A stretch of DNA of 64,000 nt, from the NCBI GenBank assembly GCA_011389985.1, contig JAABTH010000001.1, forward strand, positions 4,158-68,157. The letters are read 5' to 3'. The translations under genes were made by a program, and so were the position numbers. The DNA is from Bacillota bacterium. Lineage in GTDB: Bacteria; Bacillota; Dethiobacteria; DTU022. Of the stretch, positions 3,662-19,160 are shown in pieces. Each line of letters starts with the position of its first letter. The first letter of the stretch is position 1. Below the pieces are notes generated by a model. That model ran no database searches, had not been told where the DNA came from, and worked only from the letters and a program-made list of their open reading frames with translations.

Positions 3662-3701
3662 TCCTGCATATGGTATATACTGTGATATATATTATATGCA
3701 G
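3662..3701. promoter_or_regulatory. 9-bp inverted repeat CCTGCATAT-N22-ATATGCAGG spanning the putative vapB promoter -10 and overlapping the vapB RBS; candidate VapB autoregulation operator
   Basis: A perfect inverted repeat seen directly in the sequence. The right arm overlaps the GGAG Shine-Dalgarno 12 nt before the vapB ATG. Confidence 0.4.
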
Positions 3702-3714
3702 GAGTGTGATCATT

Positions 3715-3942
3715 ATGGATAGTGCTAAGCTTTTTTACAACGGCCGCAGCCAGGCGGTGCGCTTGCCCCGGGAATATCGCTTCGAGGGCGAAGAAGTGTA
3801 CATTAAAAAAATTGGCAGTGCGGTTGTTTTGATGCCTAAAAAGAAGGTTTGGGAAGTGCATGAAGCCGGGTTGGATTACTTCAGCGATGATTATATGGAA
3901 AATAGGAAACAACCTGACCTGAAAAAGAGGGATGACTTATGA
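3715..3942 (+). CDS. vapB: type II antitoxin VapB (AbrB/MazE/SpoVT swapped-hairpin family)
   Basis: [41 protein letters not shown] is a typical SpoVT/AbrB-type antitoxin N-domain. Its stop overlaps the vapC start (ATGA). Confidence 0.75.
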
Positions 3943-4343
3943 TCAGGTATCTGCTTGATACGAATATATGTATTTACCTGATTAAAGAAAAAGACCCTGC
4001 TTTGAAGCTGAAACTTTATAAAAAAGGGATTGGATGCTGCGCCATATCTGCCATTACCCTAGCGGAGTTAGCTTATGGGATAGAAAAAAGCAGTAAGGTG
4101 GAGCAAAATAAATTGGCGCTAGGTTTATTTCTTGCCCCTTTTGAGCTATTGTCTTTTCCAACGGATGCCGCCTTAACCTACGGAAGTATAAGGCAGCAAC
4201 TTGAACAGCGTGGGGAAATAATTGGGGGTTATGATCTGCTTATTGCAGCTCATGCTTTATCGGAAAGTTTAACTTTAGTGACCAATAATGTAGCTGAGTT
4301 TTCAAGGGTGGATGGCCTGCCTGTCGAAAACTGGAGTAACTGA
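3939..4343 (+). CDS. vapC: type II toxin VapC (PIN-domain ribonuclease)
   Basis: 134-aa ORF beginning [16 protein letters not shown], with the conserved PIN acidic residues D7 and E42 and the PIN fold pattern. Translationally coupled to vapB. Confidence 0.85.
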
Positions 4344-4352
4344 AACTATTAG

Positions 4353-4379
4353 AACACAGAGGGACGGTTCTTATGTGTT
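4353..4379 (+). repeat. REP-like palindromic element copy A (AACACAGAGGGACGGTTCTTATGTGTT)
   Basis: Member of a 6-copy family with consensus AACACAGGGGGACGGTTCTTTTGTGTT. A 6-bp stem AACACA/TGTGTT encloses a ~15-nt loop. Sits 10 nt after the vapC stop. Confidence 0.6.
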
Positions 4380-4860
4380 ATTAATTATGTAATTCTACAT
4401 AAACCAGCCTTCTGCAGGCACCAGGGACACAATAGTTATTTCTACGAGTTTCTGTCTGAGGTCATGCCCGCTTGGGAGGAAAAGCCCTTAAACTGAAGAA
4501 TTACAGATTATCGTTTTAAATGGCTAATCCTTGAGGATCAGAGGTTGAATGCCCCTGCCAAAAGAGATGTAGCACATTTTGCTGCCACCAATTTTAATTG
4601 ATTTTTCCTGCAGGTTGCCTAGCAATCTATTAAACATTTTCCATCACCCTTTAATATTTTGTAATGAGCACAGTTATAGTTAATTCGTTATTCTATTTGT
4701 ACGTTTTGCCTGCGTTTAAACGATCTTTAGAATTCAGGTGGGCCTCGTAAAAGTTTTGAAACCACTAGATGGGAAAAATGGTAAGATAGATTAAATGGGT
4801 GGTGCCGGCAGATGCCATCATCCGGTTGAAGAGCGAGGCGGGTTTTTTTGAAAGCAGTAG

Positions 4861-5520
4861 TTGTCAGGGGAAATAGAGGTAAAAAGCGCATTAAACAAGC
4901 TGAAGCGTACAGTGCCATACGGATGGGATCTTAATATCTACCGGGGTTGCCAGCACGGATGTCGTTACTGCTACACCCTCTATTCTCACCAATACCTTGG
5001 AACGGAGCAGTTTTCCAGAGAAATATTTGTGAAAAACAACATTGCCGAAAAGCTTGAAAAAGAGCTACAGGCACCGGGCTGGAAAGGCGACGTAATTAAC
5101 ATCGGCGGTGTAACCGACAGCTACCAACCGGCAGAGGCCGAGTACAGGCTGATGCCGCAAATACTGAAACTACTGACTAAATATAAAAACCCGGCCATTA
5201 TTTCGACTAAATCAGACCTGGTTTTAAGGGATTATGATCTAATTGATGAGTTGTCGAGGCTTACCTATATCAATATAGCGGCAACAATCACCACCGTTGA
5301 TGAGGCGGTTAGAGAAAAAACCGAGCCGAAAGCCGCAACTACTGCAAAGCGTTTTTCCTTGCTGAAATAGTTTAAAAAACAAATGCTTCCACCGGCTTGC
5401 ATTTAATGCCGGTTATACCTTTACTGACCGATTCTGCAGAAAATATAATTATTGTTGACTATCAATTCGTTTTATTCTCCCAGTGGAAACTCATGTAAAA
5501 GTTTTTCCAGTTCGTTAAGC
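4861..5520 (+). pseudogene. SplB-like radical SAM protein (spore-photoproduct-lyase / DNA repair photolyase family), frameshifted and truncated
   Basis: N-terminal [31 protein letters not shown] carries the CxxxCxxC radical-SAM motif. The ORF stops after 169 aa. The conserved continuation MPVIPLLTDSAEN appears in another frame at ~5407 and is followed quickly by a stop, so the gene is frameshifted and degenerate. Confidence 0.6.
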
Positions 5521-5695
5521 TTAAAAGTTTGGGCCCTGTCTGAGTTAGGCAGTTGAAAAGCGATACTGTCATCTTCGCAATAAACCCAAAGTCAAAAGCT
5601 GAGGTGGCTGTTTCGATCATTTGACTGAAACGGAAGCTATCCAAGGGTAACAGCGGATTGGCCAGGATGTAGTCGATGTTTTGAGTAATAAAAAA

Positions 5696-6418
5696 CTATT
5701 TTAATAGCAATGATGCAATAATTGTCATACTTACCATCACTACATTGCTGATACTATGCATGATCATCGGGTAATAGACACTCCCGGATTTTTCATAGCA
5801 GTCCCCATAAAATATCCCCAGGGTGATTGATAAAAAAACCTGGTAAAGGCTAAAGTCAGCTTCAAAGGGAGCAAATGAAAACCTGACATGCGCCAAACCA
5901 AATATGATGGCCGCAATGATATTTGCATAACTTAACTTCTTCTTTAAAAATCTGCCCCGTATAACAAGCGCCAGCATTGTGATGGCAAAAGCTCTGAAAA
6001 TTAGTTCTTCAGACGGGCCCGACAACACTAGCTGGAAGCTTAATTGCCCTAAGATGTTAGTAAAAGTTAGTGGGTATTGAAATGGCTGGAACGTATTGGT
6101 CAGAAAGGCGATTATATGAGAAGCTAAAGAGCCTGCAGTAAAAATCAGGGCAAATAATAGAACATAATTCCTGCCCACTGCTTTATTGCCCCAACTAAAG
6201 CCAAAGTTTAGCGGCTTAAATTTGCTTATTACAGCAATAATGAGTAAGAAAATAAAAGCTTGCACCAGGTGATGAACTGCAATCCAGGCATATGATCCGT
6301 CCGGGTCGATTTTATGATAATTAACTAGATCGGCAATATTACCTGATAACCTGGGCACTCCCAGAAGGATAACTGCCAGGAACAAGATCCAGAGCGATTT
6401 CTTCAATATATGGCCCAT
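5696..6418 (-). CDS. CPBP-family intramembrane glutamic endopeptidase (CAAX protease / Abi-like)
   Basis: Multi-TM protein with EELIFR (motif 1, EExxxR), FGLAH (motif 2) and HSISN (motif 3). Start chosen at the internal ATG (MGHILKK), which has a GAGGTG RBS. Confidence 0.75.
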   Translation of the reverse strand: MGHILKKSLWILFLAVILLGVPRLSGNIADLVNYHKIDPDGSYAWIAVHHLVQAFIFLLIIAVISKFKPLNFGFSWGNKAVGRNYVLLFALIFTAGSLASHIIAFLTNTFQPFQYPLTFTNILGQLSFQLVLSGPSEELIFRAFAITMLALVIRGRFLKKKLSYANIIAAIIFGLAHVRFSFAPFEADFSLYQVFLSITLGIFYGDCYEKSGSVYYPMIMHSISNVVMVSMTIIASLLLK

Positions 6419-6561
6419 ATATGCACCTCGTATCCTGATATCAGTAGTTTTCAATTAAGCATTCTTAAAAGGTTGTTGTGTTTTAGATCTTATCAAATTA
6501 CTGCCTGCCACATAAGATAATATATATGAAGCAGTCATGTCAATGCTTGTTTCGATCTTAG

Positions 6562-6632
6562 AACACAAGGGGACTGTTTAAAGTGTTGCAATAAATTGAT
6601 TAAGTCATCTATGCTGGTTACGAGACAAGAGG
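6562..6632 (+). repeat. extended REP-like element copy B (degenerate core plus a ~45-nt shared tail)
   Basis: Core AACACAAGGGGACTGTTTAAAGTGTT followed by GCAATAAATTGATTAAGTCATCTATGCTGGTTACGAGACAAGAGG. The tail is ~85% identical to the tail of copy C. Lies downstream of the encapsulin gene. Confidence 0.6.
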
Positions 6633-6963
6633 TAATCGAACAACAGTCTTTGGCATATAGGATGATCCTATGCTAAGAAGGGCAAAGTAAGAGACCAGTT
6701 CAGGCATTTACCATCTTGCGATAATTACCCTTAATTATTTCCAGGGCTGCAAATTTAAATATTACATTTTTATCATTTATCAGCAGATAAGTGACAAATC
6801 CGCGGCCGCTGTTGGTCTCAGGATGTATATCCGGAAACAGTGACGAAAAATCAGGGCCTGCCATGACAACCTGGTTAAACTTAAAATAGATTTATTATAA
6901 ATGAGTGTAAATTCGCCAGCATAGAAAAAGGCTGCCGGCATATTGCCAGCAGCCCTATCTCCT

Positions 6964-7755
6964 TTAGATAGTAAATTTAACTATCAGGGCCGGGTCGAGA
7001 ACCCTGAAAGTGAAAGATTCTGTAATATGCAGCCTGACTTCCTTTGCATCATGGTCCTGATAGCCGATCGAAAAATCGATGCCCAGGTTTAATTCCAGGT
7101 CTTCGTGATCAAAAGGCAATAGTAAGGCGCCTTCTAAGGCGGGTGAGAACAGAATATCACCTTCGATTAATTCTGTTATCTGCTTGTAGAGAGGGTAAGC
7201 CCCAGCTTCATGGTTGATTTGATGCCAAACTTTTTCTCCGGCAACCAGGGAGAGCGGCGTAGGTACAAAGTTATCCTGTAGAGTAAGAACACCATCTGTG
7301 AGAGCATCCATTATTGAAGAAGCGTCCTGTCCGAATTCCAGGTTCTTGTCGGCCATTTCAACTAGACCTTCAATATTACCTTTTGCATAGCCATTAAATA
7401 TAGCATTCTCTTCAAACAGGGCTGCTTTCCGGGTTGCTTCTTCCAGCGGACCCAGATCTACATCCCGGGCGCCCCGGGTTAAATTGTCCATCTCCCAGCG
7501 GTTAAGGACAAATTCACATCTGGTTTCAACTAAAGGCTGGACTTTATACAGGCCAGTACAGAGCTCTTCCGATTCTTTCTCCAGAACCGTCAGCCGCCCT
7601 TCAGGTATTACAGTATGGTTCAATCCCTTGGGGCCTTCCACATGTACGATTTTACGGGCGGTAAGAATGCTTTTCAAAACTTCTTTTGCTCTTTCATCTA
7701 TCCCATGCCAGGCTTCTTCCGTTAAAGGAGCCAGTTGGCGTTTAAGAAAATCCAT
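6964..7755 (-). CDS. family 1 encapsulin nanocompartment shell protein (HK97 fold, linocin M18-like)
   Basis: 263 aa. MDFLKRQLAPLTEEAWHGIDERAKEVLKS...DNLTRGARDVDLGPLEEATRKAALFEE...SIGYQDHDAKEVRLHITESFTFRVLDP aligns along its length with T. maritima-type encapsulin ([30 protein letters not shown]...[26 protein letters not shown]). Confidence 0.9.
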   Translation of the reverse strand: MDFLKRQLAPLTEEAWHGIDERAKEVLKSILTARKIVHVEGPKGLNHTVIPEGRLTVLEKESEELCTGLYKVQPLVETRCEFVLNRWEMDNLTRGARDVDLGPLEEATRKAALFEENAIFNGYAKGNIEGLVEMADKNLEFGQDASSIMDALTDGVLTLQDNFVPTPLSLVAGEKVWHQINHEAGAYPLYKQITELIEGDILFSPALEGALLLPFDHEDLELNLGIDFSIGYQDHDAKEVRLHITESFTFRVLDPALIVKFTI

Positions 7756-7769
7756 TGCAATTCCTCCTC

Positions 7770-8123
7770 TTATTTTTTCATGTTGCCCAGGTTCAGGCTC
7801 CCCGGGGTAACGGGGTTTTGATCATTGTCTTCATTGACCTCTTCAGAGTGGCCGATGGGCCCTTCTGTAAAAAGATTTTCTTGAAGCTCTTTCTCCCAAC
7901 CGGGCATATTTCTTCTAAGCCATTCCAAAACCATGCAGACATGCTCAATCTCTTCGTCGCGGTTATGCTTCAGAACTTCTTTAAGGGTATCATCATCGGT
8001 GGTGTCTATTCTCTGGTGATACCAGATTACCGCTTCTACTTCTTCCTTGAGGCTGTGAAGGGCACGAACGAAATCTCTTGCTTCAGTGCTCAGCTGTTCT
8101 GTTGGTTCTATATAGTTGGACAC
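7770..8123 (-). CDS. encapsulated ferritin-like protein (EncFtn) with C-terminal encapsulin targeting peptide
   Basis: 117 aa. EARDFVRALHSLKEEVEAVIWYHQRI...EEIEHVCMVLEWL carries an ExxH di-iron ferritin-like motif. The C-terminus TPGSLNLGNMKK fits the encapsulin cargo-loading peptide consensus (GSLxhGxhK). Sits immediately upstream of the shell gene. Confidence 0.8.
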   Translation of the reverse strand: MSNYIEPTEQLSTEARDFVRALHSLKEEVEAVIWYHQRIDTTDDDTLKEVLKHNRDEEIEHVCMVLEWLRRNMPGWEKELQENLFTEGPIGHSEEVNEDNDQNPVTPGSLNLGNMKK

Positions 8124-8225
8124 TTGAGTACCTCCTTATGTAAGTGATTTATACTCATATAATAAGCATATATCAGCAGTGTAATTAGGTCAAGCTAAAG
8201 GCAGAATATAGAGAATATTTTGGCC
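8124..8225 (-). promoter_or_regulatory. putative sigma-A promoter and RBS region of the EncFtn-encapsulin operon
   Basis: On the minus strand: TTGACC-N17-TATGCT, then AGGAGG, then the GTG start of EncFtn. Confidence 0.3.
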
Positions 8226-8235
8226 ATACTTTAAC

Positions 8236-8306
8236 AACACAGGGGGACGGTTCTTTTGTGTTGCAATAAATTAATAAAGCCATCTATGCTGGTTATGAGA
8301 TAAGGA
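8236..8306 (+). repeat. extended REP-like element copy C (core plus ~45-nt shared tail)
   Basis: Core AACACAGGGGGACGGTTCTTTTGTGTT followed by GCAATAAATTAATAAAGCCATCTATGCTGGTTATGAGATAAGGAG. Direct-repeat partner of copy B, upstream of the encapsulin operon promoter. Confidence 0.6.
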
Positions 8307-8711
8307 GTAGAGCTTTGAGTGATTGCACCATATAACCCTATAAGACATTATACAAACTCGCATTGCTGCCCAAAAGAGAATAAGTGCCTCGAAAATAGCG
8401 AACGGAAAAAGTTCTGCAGGCATCAGATAATCGAATAAAAGCCAGCGGGAAGCAACAAATCTGATTATAGTGAAGGCAAAGGTAGCGGACAATTGGTATT
8501 GATGCAAGTACAGTTCCGCCAGCAGCTAAAACACTTGTAAAAGCTTTATTACTCGTCAGAGAAACATCCTTGCACCTGCACGTTTATCAAGGTTTAAAAA
8601 CCATTATACTCTTTTTCATTTCCCGGCTTCCTAACTAAGGTTTAATCACTTTAATTCCGGGGATACCAAAATATCTTTGAATAGATCTAATATGTACAAG
8701 AGAATCGGATT

Positions 8712-9545
8712 TTAATAATCGCTTTCTGTTTGTGGTTTCATATAAATTAGATCACTGCTATTAACTTCAGGATGGTGATAGCGCATGACCCTAATCTTTC
8801 CTGTGCCAAGCTGAATCGCCTCCTGGGGGCACCACTGAATACAGGCAAAGCAGCTCAAGCAGTTGTTACCCCAGACCGGTTGACTATTATTTATGGTAAC
8901 ATTGTTAACCGGGCAGACTTTGCTGCAGGTTTCGCAACCCGAGCAGCGATCATTAACAGTAAAGGCCAGTGATTCCCATCCGTGCCTGACGGCATGCAGC
9001 AAAAGCGAGCTTACTGGCTTGATCACTTTAAAAAAGAGGCCGCGTAAGAGTAAAACTGAAATCAAAGTTTCAATTTCGACAGGTATAATTTGACGGTTGT
9101 TAATTACCGCTGCTATCTTGCTAACTCGAATTTTCCCCTCAGTAAGAGCTTTTTCCCTGTCAGCATTAGAAAAGCTGATATTGCCGACGGCATTATGAGG
9201 CATCATCACCGCAAAACCGGCATGTATTTTATAGCCCTTTACAGCCAGTTCATGCTGCAATTTCTCCAAACACTTCAAAGGACTAATACCATAGGTGCAG
9301 AGTGCAAAGAGGTATTTATTTTCCAACCCTTCAAATTTCGTGATAAACTCTTCTATAATCTTAGGCGTTTTAAAATCATAAACGGGAAAAACCAAGCCTA
9401 TAGCTTCGGCTTGGCTATTAATCGTTTTAGCTTTAATTAAAGGGGCCAATGGTTTAAGCCGTGCGCCGGTTATTAAGGCAAGATCTCTGGCTAAAGCAAG
9501 CGAATTGCCTGTTCCTGAAAACCAGTATATCTCCATGTTGCTCAA
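8712..9545 (-). CDS. EFR1-family ferredoxin (flavodoxin-like N-domain fused to a 2x[4Fe-4S] ferredoxin domain)
   Basis: N-terminus MEIYWFSGTGNS matches the flavodoxin-like nucleotide loop. The C-terminus carries CSGCETCSKVCP and CLSCFACIQWCP ferredoxin motifs. Confidence 0.55.
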   Translation of the reverse strand: MSNMEIYWFSGTGNSLALARDLALITGARLKPLAPLIKAKTINSQAEAIGLVFPVYDFKTPKIIEEFITKFEGLENKYLFALCTYGISPLKCLEKLQHELAVKGYKIHAGFAVMMPHNAVGNISFSNADREKALTEGKIRVSKIAAVINNRQIIPVEIETLISVLLLRGLFFKVIKPVSSLLLHAVRHGWESLAFTVNDRCSGCETCSKVCPVNNVTINNSQPVWGNNCLSCFACIQWCPQEAIQLGTGKIRVMRYHHPEVNSSDLIYMKPQTESDY

Positions 9546-9782
9546 AGGTAGTCATCCTTTCGTCGAGCCAGTTTATTCAGGTAAGCTTGATTTAATGCCC
9601 AGATAAGCAGGGCAAAGAGGGCAGCGGCAGAAATACCCTGGATTATTCGGACAACTTGTTTCTTGCTGGATAAGGGTGCGAAATTTAAGTTGCCTGATAT
9701 AAAGGCTTTGCTTAACACCAAGAGTTTATATAGTGACAGAATAAAAATAGTATGACATATCTTTAAGTCTCCGGTTTAATCA

Positions 9783-11453
9783 TTACACTTCTATATCCCG
9801 GTATCGGTTTGGAGCGATTCTGATTAGGATAAGATAAAGCATCGCTCCAATTGCCAGCGAAACAGCGGCAACGGCAAGGTACACAGCAAGGTCTGCACCG
9901 GATACCTGGTAAACGAGCCAACCGGCCAAAAATAATAGGGTATAGATCACTCCACCGGCAAGCATAGCTAAAAGAACATTAATATTCTGTTTGATCGCTT
10001 TTTGGGGGTTATCCCAGTTCAGGTAGGGCCTGAGCAGATCGATCAGCAAACTGACAACAATAGCCGGTAGGCCGGCTAGCAGGCCGATTACGATAACCAA
10101 GAGCAGTTCTGCCAGCCCCAGGGGCAGGAGAACAAAGCTGACCAGCAAAACAAGAGGGATACTTAATGCAGACATCATGTAGCCGTATAATATTTTACCG
10201 TTAACCTGCTCTTTAGCGCTGACGGGGATAACCTGGGAAATCCAGAATTGACTGCCTTCACGCGAGTAGGAACTAGAAGCAGCAGGTGTGAATAGTGCCA
10301 TAACTGCAATAAAGCCAGCCAGTGCGCTAACCTGAACCAGGCGGGGAATTTCGCTGCGTAGCGAGTCGATCAAAGTGGTCAGGGCTCCACCGCTGATCAG
10401 TGGAACAACCAGAATCACCGGGACAATTACCAGGATCGCAAGGCTATTAAATAGATAAACAGGGGTGCGCAAAAGATATTTTATTTCACGCATGGCAATT
10501 GCTACTGCCGGTGTTGATGAGGAGTTTAGCTTTTGCGCCATTACATCCTTAGAAAGAGCTTTGCCCTTGCTGACTTCATTACCACCAATTAGCCCGCGGT
10601 AAAAAAGCTTCTGCCCGGCCATAAATACAAGCGCAGCTCCAGCCAGGTTCAGCAGCAGGAAATAGAGGAACCAGATTAATTTCGCGGGGCCTGCTGATGA
10701 CAGGGCGCGTACCGCAAGTAAGGCGGGCGGGTAGATACGGGTTATGTGCATCAGCAGCCCCTCACTTTTTAGCAGCAGGTCCTCGATGTAGGCTATTTCT
10801 TCTCCCTCGGGGATGCCGGTCAGGAAGTAGTTAAGCAGGAAGATGAGCAGCAAAAAGAAGACCATGCCGATTATTCTTAAGGTGTCGCGTTTTCTGCTTA
10901 GATTTGTTAGGCTCATCAACGCAAGGGTAAAAAGTGTGGCCACTCCTAAGGGAATGATTGGTGTGAGCAGGAACACCAGTAGAGCAATGATCCAGTAAAG
11001 AAGACCTGCTCCGCTGCCAATACCAAAAACCCAGATTGCCGGAATCAGAAATGGCGCTATGGTCAGGTATTCATAAACAATGATTAGGGCAAATTTTGAA
11101 CCCATAATCGTGCCCGGCTGCAGGGGCAGGGGTACCAGGATGCTTAGATCTCTGGAAAAGAAAAAGACAGAAAGAACAGCAGTCAGGCCAAAAAAAAGCA
11201 CCAACATGGAAGAAATCATTAAACCTGTTGCCAGCACAATTTCAGGCTGACCAAGTTCAGCTGTAATTTGGTAAGCTCCCTGAAGCAGCCTCAGATAGAG
11301 GAAGAATATAGGGCCCAGGCTGAAGAGAACCAGGGCGACGATACCAACTGCACCGAGAAATTTTTTCAAATCATGCTTCATGTACCAACGCAGGGCTGAA
11401 AGCCCAAGATTTATTCTTAACTGGATCAGAATCAATTTAAAAATGTTCATCAT
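9783..11453 (-). CDS. ABC transporter permease (large polytopic membrane subunit, ABC-2/exporter-like)
   Basis: 556-aa hydrophobic protein with >10 predicted TM helices. The downstream ATPase gene's stop overlaps its start codon (ATGA). Confidence 0.55.
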   Translation of the reverse strand: MMNIFKLILIQLRINLGLSALRWYMKHDLKKFLGAVGIVALVLFSLGPIFFLYLRLLQGAYQITAELGQPEIVLATGLMISSMLVLFFGLTAVLSVFFFSRDLSILVPLPLQPGTIMGSKFALIIVYEYLTIAPFLIPAIWVFGIGSGAGLLYWIIALLVFLLTPIIPLGVATLFTLALMSLTNLSRKRDTLRIIGMVFFLLLIFLLNYFLTGIPEGEEIAYIEDLLLKSEGLLMHITRIYPPALLAVRALSSAGPAKLIWFLYFLLLNLAGAALVFMAGQKLFYRGLIGGNEVSKGKALSKDVMAQKLNSSSTPAVAIAMREIKYLLRTPVYLFNSLAILVIVPVILVVPLISGGALTTLIDSLRSEIPRLVQVSALAGFIAVMALFTPAASSSYSREGSQFWISQVIPVSAKEQVNGKILYGYMMSALSIPLVLLVSFVLLPLGLAELLLVIVIGLLAGLPAIVVSLLIDLLRPYLNWDNPQKAIKQNINVLLAMLAGGVIYTLLFLAGWLVYQVSGADLAVYLAVAAVSLAIGAMLYLILIRIAPNRYRDIEV

Positions 11454-12172
11454 TCAGTCAACTCCAGGAAGATATTTTCAAGGTTTTCCCGGTTGGCGGC
11501 CATTGTCTTAAGCTCATCCATAGTGCCGCAGGCAATAAGGCGGCCCTTATTTATTATGCCAATCCGGTCGCATAACTTTTCAGCCACTTCGAGAACGTGG
11601 GTGGAGAAAAAGACTGTTTTGCCTGCATTACAGTGTTCGCGCATGTATTTTTTCAGGTTGTTCGATGAACGGGGATCAAGCCCAACCATCGGTTCATCAA
11701 GAATGAACAGGTCGGGTTCATGAAGCATGGCCCCGACTAAAACAATTTTTTGCCGCATTCCGTGGGAATATGATTGGATCAGGTCGCCTACAGCATCGCT
11801 CAGCGAAAAGAGATCAAGCAGATAGGTCAGCCTTTCGCGGCGCAGCTCCGCAGGAACAGAATAAACATCGCCCATAAAGTTCAAGTATTCAATTCCGGTC
11901 AGCTTTTCGTAAACTTCCGGGCTGTCGGGAACGAAACTGATTGCCCTTTTAACCTCCAGCGGGTTATCCATTATTGATATTCCATTAATGGCAACTGTTC
12001 CACTGTCCGGTTTGAGCAGCCCCACCATCATCTTGATCGTGGTTGTTTTTCCGGCCCCGTTAGGGCCCAGAAAACCGAAGATTTCACCATTATTAACGGT
12101 CAGGTTTAAATCATCGACAGCCTTGACCGTTCCCTTGTTGTAGCTTTTGGAAAGATTATTGATTACAATCAT
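11450..12172 (-). CDS. ABC transporter ATP-binding protein
   Basis: Walker A GPNGAGKTT, Q-loop, signature YSHGMRQK, Walker B LFILDEP, H-loop. 240 aa. Confidence 0.85.
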   Translation of the reverse strand: MIVINNLSKSYNKGTVKAVDDLNLTVNNGEIFGFLGPNGAGKTTTIKMMVGLLKPDSGTVAINGISIMDNPLEVKRAISFVPDSPEVYEKLTGIEYLNFMGDVYSVPAELRRERLTYLLDLFSLSDAVGDLIQSYSHGMRQKIVLVGAMLHEPDLFILDEPMVGLDPRSSNNLKKYMREHCNAGKTVFFSTHVLEVAEKLCDRIGIINKGRLIACGTMDELKTMAANRENLENIFLELTE

Positions 12173-12202: not shown

Positions 12203-12604
12203 TTAATAGAAATAAAGTGTGGCTGCCAGAATAATCAGGCCGATTGCCGAAGCGGCGATATCAATCAAGATTACACCACGGCCCCGATCTTTACGCAGCA
12301 TAGCCGCAACTGTCTTCTGGAATTTTTGGTAATTTAGCAGCAAAATCAGAGCTTTAACCGCGGTCAGAGAAAATAGGACGGTCAGGTAAATAGAGTTTGT
12401 AATATCTAAGGTAAAGTGCATATACCAGGTCAGAGCAACTAAGGCCAGGCCGAGCAGGGCAATAACCACTATGTAGGGTGGGCGTTTTTCTGAGTAAAAT
12501 TTTTCGATAAAGCTATTTTCATCCCAGGGCAGAATGTGCATGTAAAAAGGTTTAAGAAAGGCTGCCAAACCGAAGATTATGCCGAGTACTTTAAAGTAGT
12601 TCAT
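12203..12604 (-). CDS. membrane protein of unknown function (paralog 1 of a tandem pair)
   Basis: 133 aa with 4 predicted TM helices. Shares MNYF(K/Q)VL.IIFGL and ~35% identity with the adjacent ORF 12626..13027. Confidence 0.5.
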   Translation of the reverse strand: MNYFKVLGIIFGLAAFLKPFYMHILPWDENSFIEKFYSEKRPPYIVVIALLGLALVALTWYMHFTLDITNSIYLTVLFSLTAVKALILLLNYQKFQKTVAAMLRKDRGRGVILIDIAASAIGLIILAATLYFY

Positions 12605-12625: not shown

Positions 12626-13027
12626 TTAGTAAAGTAGAAATCCGATTAAAAGTGATGCTATTCCCAAGATTAGAGCAAATAAGTTGATCAGGGCCAGGGT
12701 TTTGCGATCTTTTTCCAGCACCCTCACTACAAAGGCCCGGAATTGTTTGTAGTTGAAAAGCACTTGTGACATTTTAACCAAAGTCAGGGTCACAAACAGG
12801 GTGATAACAATGGAATAGGGAATATCTGCAGTGAAGTGCTTATACCAGGTGAAGGCCACCAGGCCAAGACCGAAAAGCCCGATATACCAGACCCAGCGGG
12901 GTTGTTTTTCCGTGTAAGCAGTATTTAGCTCAAAAGTGTTCCATTGCTTCGGGAAAAACTGAATCGCCGGTCGGGTTAGGATCAGGATCAAACCAAAAAT
13001 AATGCTTAAAACCTGAAAGTAGTTCAT
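12626..13027 (-). CDS. membrane protein of unknown function (paralog 2 of a tandem pair)
   Basis: 133 aa with the same architecture as 12203..12604. Its start overlaps the tetR stop (ATGA). Confidence 0.5.
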   Translation of the reverse strand: MNYFQVLSIIFGLILILTRPAIQFFPKQWNTFELNTAYTEKQPRWVWYIGLFGLGLVAFTWYKHFTADIPYSIVITLFVTLTLVKMSQVLFNYKQFRAFVVRVLEKDRKTLALINLFALILGIASLLIGFLLY

Positions 13028-13727: not shown

Positions 13728-14131
13728 GGATAACATTTCACTTCCAAAAAAGCAATAGCTTTTTAAAAAAATATCGTACGAAATATATTGCCATAGATTG
13801 CTACAATTGGGATAACACGAGGTGATGGTTCTGAGTGACCTCCTTAAGATGACAGAAATTAAGTACGGTTAAAGCAGACACATTTTTCATTAATCTATTA
13901 TAGAGAGGCTTGAAGGCAGACTCTCAAACGCTATTTGTGGTTTTCAATTGTATTAAATGTATACCAACCTTTTAATATAGAAATTCCAGTTTTTAGAAAG
14001 CATCTAAATGGTATTTTGCATCCGTTAAGATTAAAAATGAGAAATCTCATAATTTTGACAGCTTCAGCAAAATTTTGATATGATCATAAAAAGATAAAAG
14101 TTCACAATACAATGCCTGGGAGGTGAATATA

Positions 14132-14380
14132 TTGGGAATCCTGGCTTGGATTATTGTTGGAGCTATCGCTGGTCTGCTCGCTAACCTAATTATTGGTGGC
14201 GGGTTTGGATTGATTGGTAATATCCTGCTTGGAATAGTCGGAGCTCTGGTAGGCGGTTGGCTTTCCACCTCTATTTTGAGTTTGCCTTATGATGTTACTG
14301 GTATTAACTTAATTTCAATTCTGGTGGCAACTGGAGGAGCTGTTGTTGTATTATTTGTAGTTAATTTATTAAGACGATAA
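14132..14380 (+). CDS. GlsB/YeaQ/YmgE-family stress-response membrane protein (transglycosylase-associated protein)
   Basis: LGILAWIIVGAIAGLLANLIIGGGFGLIGNILLGIVGALVGGW matches the family signature. GGGAGG RBS 9 nt before the TTG start. A TTGACA-N18-TATGAT promoter sits at ~14056. Confidence 0.7.
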   Translation: MGILAWIIVGAIAGLLANLIIGGGFGLIGNILLGIVGALVGGWLSTSILSLPYDVTGINLISILVATGGAVVVLFVVNLLRR

Positions 14381-14414
14381 GTATAAATAGAGATGAGTGA
14401 AAAGAGAGGTAAAA

Positions 14415-14585
14415 ATGATAGCTAAAATATTAGGAGCTACAAAAAATTTGGGGATGCTGTTGCTTGGTATCTGGCTGATACTAAACGGGCTTTTGCAGTT
14501 GTTCGATTTTGCAATTCCCGGAGGAGGAACCATCATGGCCCTACTGGCCCTCGCAGCCGGAGTTTTAATTTTACTTGGCAAGTAG
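14415..14585 (+). CDS. small two-TM membrane protein (hypothetical)
   Basis: MIAKILGATKNLGMLLLGIWLILNGLLQLFDFAIPGGGTIMALLALAAGVLILLGK. GAGAGGT RBS before the ATG. Confidence 0.4.
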   Translation: MIAKILGATKNLGMLLLGIWLILNGLLQLFDFAIPGGGTIMALLALAAGVLILLGK

Positions 14586-16942: not shown

Positions 16943-17464
16943 TTAATCTCTTTCGCTGTTCTCTTCGCGTTCTTTTTGCTGCTTTAATAATTCCTCTTCT
17001 AATCTTTTCTTTTCAGCTTCTAACTCGGTTTGTTCTTGCACTGCGGATTCTTCACGTTCTTTTTGTTGTCTGTTTAGCTCTTCTTCAAGTTTTTTCTTTT
17101 CAGCTTCTAACTCTGCCTGCGCTTTTGCAGCAGCTTCTTCACGTTCTTTCTGCATTTTGTTTAACTCGTTTTCAAGCTTTTTGTTTTCATTCTCTAGAGT
17201 TTTTATTTGTTGTTGCAGCTCTTTTTTGAGACCGCGTTCAGCCTGAGAGCCCATGTACTTTTGAATACTGCGAAATATACCAAAAAAGATCATAACCAGA
17301 ACTCCAGCAGCAGCAGAACCAAGGATCACCATAGACAAGGTGAGGTTTGACTGGTCTAAAAGATAGTTTAATGTGACAGCTTCGGTATTGATTATAGCTA
17401 CAACAGCGATAACTATTGCAAGAATTAAAGCTAACGCAAGAAATATCATTCTCATTTTTATCAT
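16943..17464 (-). CDS. LapA-family (DUF1049) membrane protein with a C-terminal repetitive coiled-coil region
   Basis: N-terminal double-TM LapA-like domain. The C-terminus carries ~30-aa repeats (ELEAEKKKLEEELNRQQKEREE...) encoded by ~90-nt tandem DNA repeats. Confidence 0.6.
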   Translation of the reverse strand: MIKMRMIFLALALILAIVIAVVAIINTEAVTLNYLLDQSNLTLSMVILGSAAAGVLVMIFFGIFRSIQKYMGSQAERGLKKELQQQIKTLENENKKLENELNKMQKEREEAAAKAQAELEAEKKKLEEELNRQQKEREESAVQEQTELEAEKKRLEEELLKQQKEREENSERD

Positions 17465-17533: not shown

Positions 17534-17560
17534 AACACAGGGGGACGGTTCTTTTGTGTT
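17534..17560 (+). repeat. REP-like element copy D (exact consensus AACACAGGGGGACGGTTCTTTTGTGTT)
   Basis: 44 nt upstream of the RAYT start. A partial duplicate stub AACACAG lies at 17523-17529. Confidence 0.65.
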
Positions 17561-18383: not shown

Positions 18384-18410
18384 AACACAAAAGAACCGTC
18401 CCTCTGTGTT
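18384..18410 (-). repeat. REP-like element copy E (reverse orientation: AACACAAAAGAACCGTCCCTCTGTGTT)
   Basis: 25 nt downstream of the RAYT stop. One mismatch to the reverse complement of the consensus. Confidence 0.65.
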
Positions 18411-19133: not shown

Positions 19134-19160
19134 AACACAAAAGAACCGTCCCCTTGTGTT
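19134..19160 (-). repeat. REP-like element copy F (reverse orientation: AACACAAAAGAACCGTCCCCTTGTGTT)
   Basis: Followed by a partial duplicate (GCCCTTGTGTT) at ~19161-19171. Confidence 0.65.

Follow-up and report, generated by a model that had tools for sequence, protein, structure and literature searches.

Repetitive extragenic palindromic (REP) elements are short imperfect palindromes that occur in many intergenic copies, together with a gene for a Y1 HUH transposase, the REP-associated tyrosine transposase (RAYT), that lies between inverted copies. RAYTs and their REP/REPIN repeats were reportedly described by Nunvar in 2010, by Bertels and Rainey in 2011 and by Ton-Hoang in 2012. EncFtn, the cargo of some encapsulin shells, is loaded into the shell via its C-terminal peptide; the iron that it oxidises is stored inside. 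Two-gene operons of EncFtn and a family-1 encapsulin are known from, e.g., Rhodospirillum rubrum, Haliangium and Pyrococcus (bioRxiv 10.1101/431494). A precedent for an encapsulin operon in a mobile element is the transposon-borne DyP encapsulin operon of enterobacteria, which has transposase genes at its flanks and is identical across species (PMC11623594). Here we analysed 64,000 nt of a Bacillota bacterium of the Dethiobacteria (assembly GCA_011389985.1, contig JAABTH010000001.1, positions 4,158 to 68,157; hereafter, the window), in which an EncFtn-encapsulin operon lies between two copies (B and C) of a direct repeat that contains a REP. Both parts, the REP/RAYT system and the family-1 EncFtn encapsulin operon, are already known, and the window is a new, rather ordinary instance of them. 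We lean towards reading the locus as a normal operon between two decayed copies that go back to a single ancient duplication, within the locus, of a REP with its flank, a pair that would now be inert.

The REP-containing repeat and its RAYT

The repeat is a 73-nt unit found twice in the same (+) orientation, at 6562–6634 (copy B) and 8236–8309 (copy C), with 1675 nt from start to start, and in each copy a 27-nt REP hairpin core is followed by 47 nt of tail. Identity between the copies amounts to 84% over 69 nt for the whole unit and 87% over 52 nt for the tail, with 15 nt as the longest uninterrupted match. Their local alignment had a z of 27.8 and was not equalled in 200 shuffles (0/200), and nhmmer returned E-values of ~1e-11 to 1e-12 for the repeat (E = 1.8e-12 for the tail of copy B against 8263–8309). 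The edges of the repeat are sharp, as similarity in the flanks was not significant (138/500 and 102/500 shuffles matched the flank scores). The canonical core is an imperfect palindrome (AACACA...TGTGTT) with a 6–9 bp stem that is weak when folded as DNA (−3.5 to −4.2 kcal/mol). Copy B matches it at 21 of 27 positions, the six differences including a 1-nt deletion, and folding leaves its hairpin a stem of 5 bp; the loop has decayed as well.

Besides copy C, the window contains four canonical cores (copies A, D, E and F; Table 1), with 0 expected by chance. All six REPs (five canonical, one decayed) sit between open reading frames (ORFs), and D, E and F also occupy neighbouring spacers. An apparently intact RAYT gene, 9.3 kb away from the bracketing REPs, lies between the inverted cores D and E. 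The presence of this matching RAYT between inverted REPs in the same window makes the core a true REP of a REP-RAYT system. An initial annotation, made from the sequence alone, had described two same-orientation REP-containing repeats 1.67 kb apart; the alignment and spacing bear this out, and its REP label was right on stronger grounds than first thought. A relative of the source organism (L004–L006) has a RAYT 74% identical to that of the window and likewise flanked by inverted REPs. In total, RAYT homologs (49–74% amino acid identity) were found beside at least one core in 15 loci and between inverted cores in about 10 (including L004, L057, L064, L075, L080 and L112).

The exact 27-nt core (AACACARRGGGACGGTTCTTTTGTGTT) was detected in at least 118 stretches of species-representative genomes. 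Among the matches listed were Syntrophomonadaceae, Tissierellaceae, Clostridiaceae, Acutalibacteraceae, Lachnospiraceae, Desulfotomaculum, Acetobacterium, Tindallia, Alkaliphilus and others, as well as a few non-Firmicute metagenome-assembled genomes (MAGs). A letter-identical REP core across a class is unusual, classical REPs being lineage-specific. The system differs from classical ones in further respects, as the window belongs to a lineage of the Clostridia whereas the classical systems are gamma-proteobacterial, an identical 27-nt core is common to many families, and copies B and C bear a private 47-nt extension. Moreover, the hairpin of classical REPs bears a conserved tetranucleotide, GTAG or CGTC, at its 5' foot (PMC3733652), whereas in the window no constant tag of either kind was found there, the 5' flanks being TTAG, TTAG, TAAC, CAGT, GGAG and GGGC. 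This RAYT group may have a different tag or carry it at another position.

The tail is far more restricted than the core. A profile search detected only copies B and C in the 64-kb window, in ~330 kb of relatives' loci and in the full 1.05-Mb set, made up of DNA that is related or contains REPs (229 REP copies of other genomes among them). None of the four other REPs of the window has it, as the initial annotation had said, and the further copies for which it had proposed to search the genome were not found in these sets. In the genome and metagenome collections, 20-mers of the tail had 0 exact matches, a result of little weight given that the window's own copies were likewise missed. Unitigs (short-read contigs) of independent origin, from three sequencing runs, continue unbranched through the tails of both B and C and break only at the REP core of copy C. 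Because of this, the sampled populations likely contain no other near-identical copies of the tail. The unitigs reproduced only the junctions of the window, with no deletion junction among them in the three runs. The annotation had named, as evidence that would speak against a mobile cassette, repeats that are ubiquitous REP arrays unrelated to the presence of the operon; this describes the core, which occurs throughout the Clostridia with no correlation to the operon, but not the tail, which is not ubiquitous.

These searches bear on the possibility that B and C are chance neighbours from a low-copy REP-derived family (a REP plus a 47-nt arm, resembling bacterial interspersed mosaic elements or miniature inverted-repeat transposable elements) with more copies elsewhere. 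REP doublets with spacers of 4–72 nt are common in other genomes with this core, which is what such a family would lead one to expect, as are the intergenic placement of all six REPs and the clustering of D, E and F, and the window shows 64 kb of the genome. On the other hand, no third copy was found in these 64 kb or beside the 229 REPs of other genomes, the unitigs are unbranched through both tails, and a divergence of 13% is atypical of an active family. We regard this explanation as unlikely.

Several identities for the tail were considered. Rfam gave no match in the window at gathering thresholds, nor in 6400–8750 at E ≤ 1, and folding predicted no structure in the tail beyond the REP stem. 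A coding sequence or the 3' end of a gene was rejected since all frames are interrupted in or just past the repeat and similarity stops abruptly. Descent from a shortened, inverted EncFtn promoter, based on the shared words TATGCT, TATGAG and AAGGAG, was dismissed as 145/1000 and 845/1000 shuffles reached the respective scores. An outward promoter within the tail (TTGCAA-18-TATGCT) is unproven, with only 8/12 positions matching and no call in the promoter scan. An integron attC site was rejected too, as on direct reading the unit has no R''/R' core sites (RYYYAAC / GTTRRRY) and its core is a RAYT-linked REP. In a scan of viral_contigs, one 22-nt exact match to the tail of copy C was located within a phage capsid-like ORF (...RQDAIYAGYESS...; L155, 6974–6995). 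It has no flanking similarity and was treated as chance rather than as a copy of the tail; the chance expectation is ~0.01–0.2, estimated by hand from a guessed ~6e10 bases in viral_contigs.

The encapsulin operon and its borders in relatives

The genes between the repeats form an ordinary intact chromosomal EncFtn/family-1 encapsulin operon with its own promoter and terminator. As in described operons of this type, the cargo gene is directly upstream of the shell gene (a gap of 14 nt), both are full length with family scores well over the curated cut-offs, and EncFtn ends in a GSL-type C-terminal peptide (...PGSLNLGNMKK). This peptide is conserved in relatives and, by analogy with established EncFtn systems, probably has a targeting role. 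Nothing functional distinguishes the operon from those described, and only the flanking repeats are unusual. The initial annotation had pictured a self-contained unit with its own promoter, which holds, the promoter being conserved and a terminator being present as well. Its account needs correcting in one respect, namely that the operon reads right to left, and thus copy C lies upstream of the promoter and copy B 291 nt past the terminator.

The composition of the operon is that of its surroundings. The GC content of the two genes is 0.457 and 0.458, compared with 0.436 ± 0.041 for the window (mean of 32 long ORFs), and their GC at third codon positions is 0.43 and 0.49, compared with 0.412 ± 0.061 for the same ORFs. 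A foreign composition, for which the annotation had suggested looking, is thereby rejected. An AT-rich semi-palindrome (TTATTATATGAGTATAA) in the upstream region overlaps the −10 element and the 5' untranslated region (UTR), and it could be an operator for a metal or peroxide regulator. No relatives of the encapsulin were found on viral contigs.

Full-length encapsulin homologs with 82–89% amino acid identity were found in soda-lake metagenomes and MAGs, and the EncFtn-encapsulin gene order is identical in all of these relatives. At the DNA level, the match to relatives extends only from ~8220 to ~6925 (79–86% nucleotide identity), i.e., from just upstream of the −35 element to the terminator. 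In 12 relatives the block of promoter and 5' UTR can be aligned, before homology ends at ~8220, and the terminator is kept in most relatives, where it is the end of the shared block. No other DNA or protein in common with the relatives was detected within 4000–12000 of the window. The relatives' operons occur in ~11 other genomic contexts, and neither the tail nor a bracketing REP pair is present at the operon borders in these 11. The initial annotation had suggested REP-mediated capture, mobilisation or excision of the cassette, and had proposed synteny in relatives as the means of seeing whether the cassette is present or absent precisely at the repeats. As the shared block ends at ~8220 and ~6925 and not at the repeats, this suggestion is not supported by the comparison, nor by the decay of copy B, the 15-nt identity, the native GC content and the unitigs.

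The contexts of the operon in relatives overlap in part. Several have a Pyr_redox_2 gene and a rubrerythrin-like gene upstream, in L013, L019–L021 and L026 the operon directly adjoins a GlsB/YeaQ gene, and a tRNA-Arg fragment is situated downstream in L009, L018 and L023. From these arrangements, the partial sharing of neighbours looks like ordinary synteny decay and not like hopping of the cassette alone. In the window, GlsB has the relative orientation seen in L021 and L026 and stands 5.9 kb upstream of the operon, and the gene maps suggest that a ~5.8-kb block (EFR1 ferredoxin, ABC transporter, two membrane proteins and TetR) may stand between operon and GlsB in the window only. Orthologs of the EFR1-type ferredoxin were used to look for an empty site but led to none; the nearest of them reach no more than 76% identity and have no neighbours in common with the window.

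Between the terminator and copy B is a 291-nt stretch common to no relative, with a 54-aa ORF. Against 1.84 billion representative proteins the ORF hit only itself, and it had no Pfam, NCBIfam or PHROG match, so we rejected the view that the stretch and its ORF are what is left of an integrase or another gene. Homology of the stretch to the region downstream of the operon in L007 was likewise rejected, as the similarity runs only through the terminator, to ~6874.

Origin of the repeat pair

The tail occurs nowhere else in the DNA searched, and a single local duplication is for this reason the most likely source of the pair. The 73-nt segment would have arisen from a hairpin of the genome's own REP-RAYT system and the 47 nt that formerly were its unique 3' flank, and a single old duplication of both would have yielded B and C. 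The copy may have been placed in the neighbouring spacer by aberrant RAYT activity or single-strand copying, or by recombination or a slip of replication. We infer that the two copies have since drifted to ~85% identity, that copy B lost its hairpin in the process, and that the pair is now inert, being no operon border in relatives and offering no usable substrate to RecA or RAYT. Two independent insertions of a REP are less likely than one duplication, which fits a private and sharp-ended tail better. The same event may or may not have introduced the 1.6 kb that now separates B from C.

Some observations sit uneasily with a local duplication. A private 73-nt segment occurs twice exactly one operon apart, a geometry that duplication alone leaves unexplained, and copy C starts only 15 nt outside the conserved promoter block. 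The search for the tail covered 64 kb of the source genome, and no empty site was seen. Insertion scars also appear to occur in the lineage. Significant direct repeats within 400 nt of the operon were found in 2/12 contexts, i.e., the window and L023/L024, and in L023/L024 these are 41-nt 3' fragments of tRNA-Arg that bracket the operon. There, an intact tRNA-Arg(ACG) is located 3.6 kb upstream, and in the sister clade a tRNA-Arg fragment lies 150–195 nt downstream of the operon. In L009, L018 and L023, the contexts cease to be homologous precisely at the CCA terminus of the fragment, which is the signature of an integrative island border.

A second explanation builds on these observations, namely that a 1.6-kb piece (the operon and the 291-nt orphan stretch) entered a pre-existing REP-plus-tail site long ago. 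Campbell-type or site-specific recombination would have joined this site to its counterpart on a donor molecule, either circular or linear, so that the site was duplicated and its two copies then decayed. A discrete unit between direct repeats, the proximity of copy C to the promoter block, and the att-like fragments around the operon in L023/L024 with the homology stop at the CCA end would all be expected of such a scar. So would the lack of any gene within 4 kb in common with a relative, and the distance to GlsB, which abuts the operon in L019–L021 and L026 but is 5.9 kb off in the window. There are likenesses to tRNA-targeted integrative islands and to their remnants without an integrase, which resemble cis-mobilizable elements (CIMEs) with att repeats at their ends, in that direct repeats of tens of nucleotides surround a small module without a recombinase in both the window and L023/L024. 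However, the repeat of the window does not correspond to the end of a tRNA, and there is no known empty site. No tRNA or tmRNA was found in the window, no integrase or recombinase among the ORFs examined within ~8 kb, and no domain of either kind in those examined between 351 and 18359. The tail accompanies the operon in no relative, the composition is native, and the 291 nt bracketed along with the operon have no homolog, so that no donor can be identified. We therefore regard an old insertion as rather unlikely, albeit the strongest of the alternatives.

A more specific version, in which the pair marks a real capture and the 1.6-kb cassette came in at a REP site belonging to a domesticated RAYT system, whether by HUH chemistry on single strands or by recombination guided by the REP, is improbable. 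If it were true, REP/RAYT systems would occasionally shuttle host operons, and the tRNA-Arg case of L023/L024 would indicate a cassette that is recurrently portable.

Mobility at present is the least credible of the explanations, and we consider it highly improbable. It would require that the same-strand REPs serve as IS200/IS605-like ends for a RAYT acting in trans, or that they recombine with each other, releasing a circle of 1.67 kb. For efficient RecA recombination, more than 15 nt of perfect identity is needed, and the longest identity between B and C falls short of this. The REPs do have the same orientation, an apparently intact RAYT is near, and Y1 HUH transposases act on same-strand hairpins (IS608; PMC6006769). 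The hairpin ends are not equivalent, though, with copy B differing at 6/27 core positions and keeping a 5-bp stem, and neither a relative with a REP-ended operon nor a deletion junction in the three runs was found. Unlike the enterobacterial DyP operon, that of the window has no transposase at its borders, no identical copies elsewhere and a native composition.

Were the repeats truly the limits of a mobile cassette, a host operon would here be seen for the first time to be moved by REP/RAYT machinery, and iron-storage compartments would have a route by which to spread. The evidence instead favours a normal operon beside decayed REP debris, and the locus mainly illustrates how REPs scatter through intergenic DNA. 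Two other observations are possibly worth more than this finding, i.e., the class-wide, letter-identical REP core with its RAYT, and the operon bracketed by att-like tRNA-Arg fragments in a relative.

Features and neighbouring genes

The features of the locus, and the tRNA-Arg-related sites of the relatives, are listed in Table 1.

Table 1 Coordinates of the repeats, the operon, the REP-RAYT system and tRNA-Arg-related sites (window coordinates unless a locus is named).
Feature	Coordinates	Strand	Evidence or remark
REP copy A, without tail	4353..4379	+	10 nt past the VapC stop codon
REP copy B, decayed core AACACAAGGGGACTGTTTAAAGTGTT	6562..6587	+	alignment to canonical core; 5-bp stem
Tail of copy B, 47 nt	6588..6634	+	87% identical to 8263–8309
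Orphan DNA, 291 nt, with 54-aa ORF at 6700–6864 (−)	6635..6925		common to no relative
Intrinsic terminator	6928..6956	−	13-bp stem, 8 GC pairs, then T-run
Family-1 encapsulin shell, 263 aa	6964..7755	−	PF04454 257 bits, E = 1.7e-76; NF041155 (equivalog) 254 bits, cut-off 100 bits
EncFtn cargo, 117 aa, GTG start	7770..8123	−	PF22277 129 bits, E = 6e-38; TIGR04535 144 bits
Promoter and 5' UTR block	8124..8220	−	TTGACC-17-TATGCT at 8193..8165 (sigma-70-like, promoter scan); AAGGAGG ribosome-binding site
REP copy C, canonical core AACACAGGGGGACGGTTCTTTTGTGTT	8236..8262	+	exact consensus match; unitigs break here
Tail of copy C, 47 nt	8263..8309	+	alignment, nhmmer profile
REP copy D	17534..17560	+	43 nt upstream of RAYT start
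RAYT, 251 aa	17604..18359	+	NF047646 81.7 bits (cut-off 80); PF01797 Y1_Tnp
REP copy E, inverted	18384..18410	−	just downstream of RAYT
REP copy F	19134..19160	−	core match
tRNA-Arg-related sites, L023	1666–1743, 5382–5422, 7074–7114		
tRNA-Arg fragments, L024	104–144, 1796–1836		
tRNA-Arg fragment, L009	6597–6637		
tRNA-Arg fragment, L018	2357–2397		

The operon with its repeats lies in the interval between a CPBP gene and the EFR1 gene. Among the genes around the operon, GlsB/YeaQ (PF04226) is represented by a pair of small membrane protein genes (14123–14380 and 14397–14585). Two tandem paralogous 133-aa membrane proteins (12203–12604 and 12626–13027), which share the start MNYF.VL.IIFGL and have no Pfam match, adjoin the TetR regulator and the ABC transporter. 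On the other side, a MazE-like antitoxin and PIN/VapC toxin pair (3670–4343) ends just before REP copy A, and the next gene (4861–5370) is a truncated radical-SAM ORF of 169 aa, with a Pfam match to positions 2–131 of 166. Directly upstream of the RAYT locus, a 173-aa ORF (16943–17464) contains an 87-nt tandem coiled-coil repeat (16962–17135) whose units are 72% identical.

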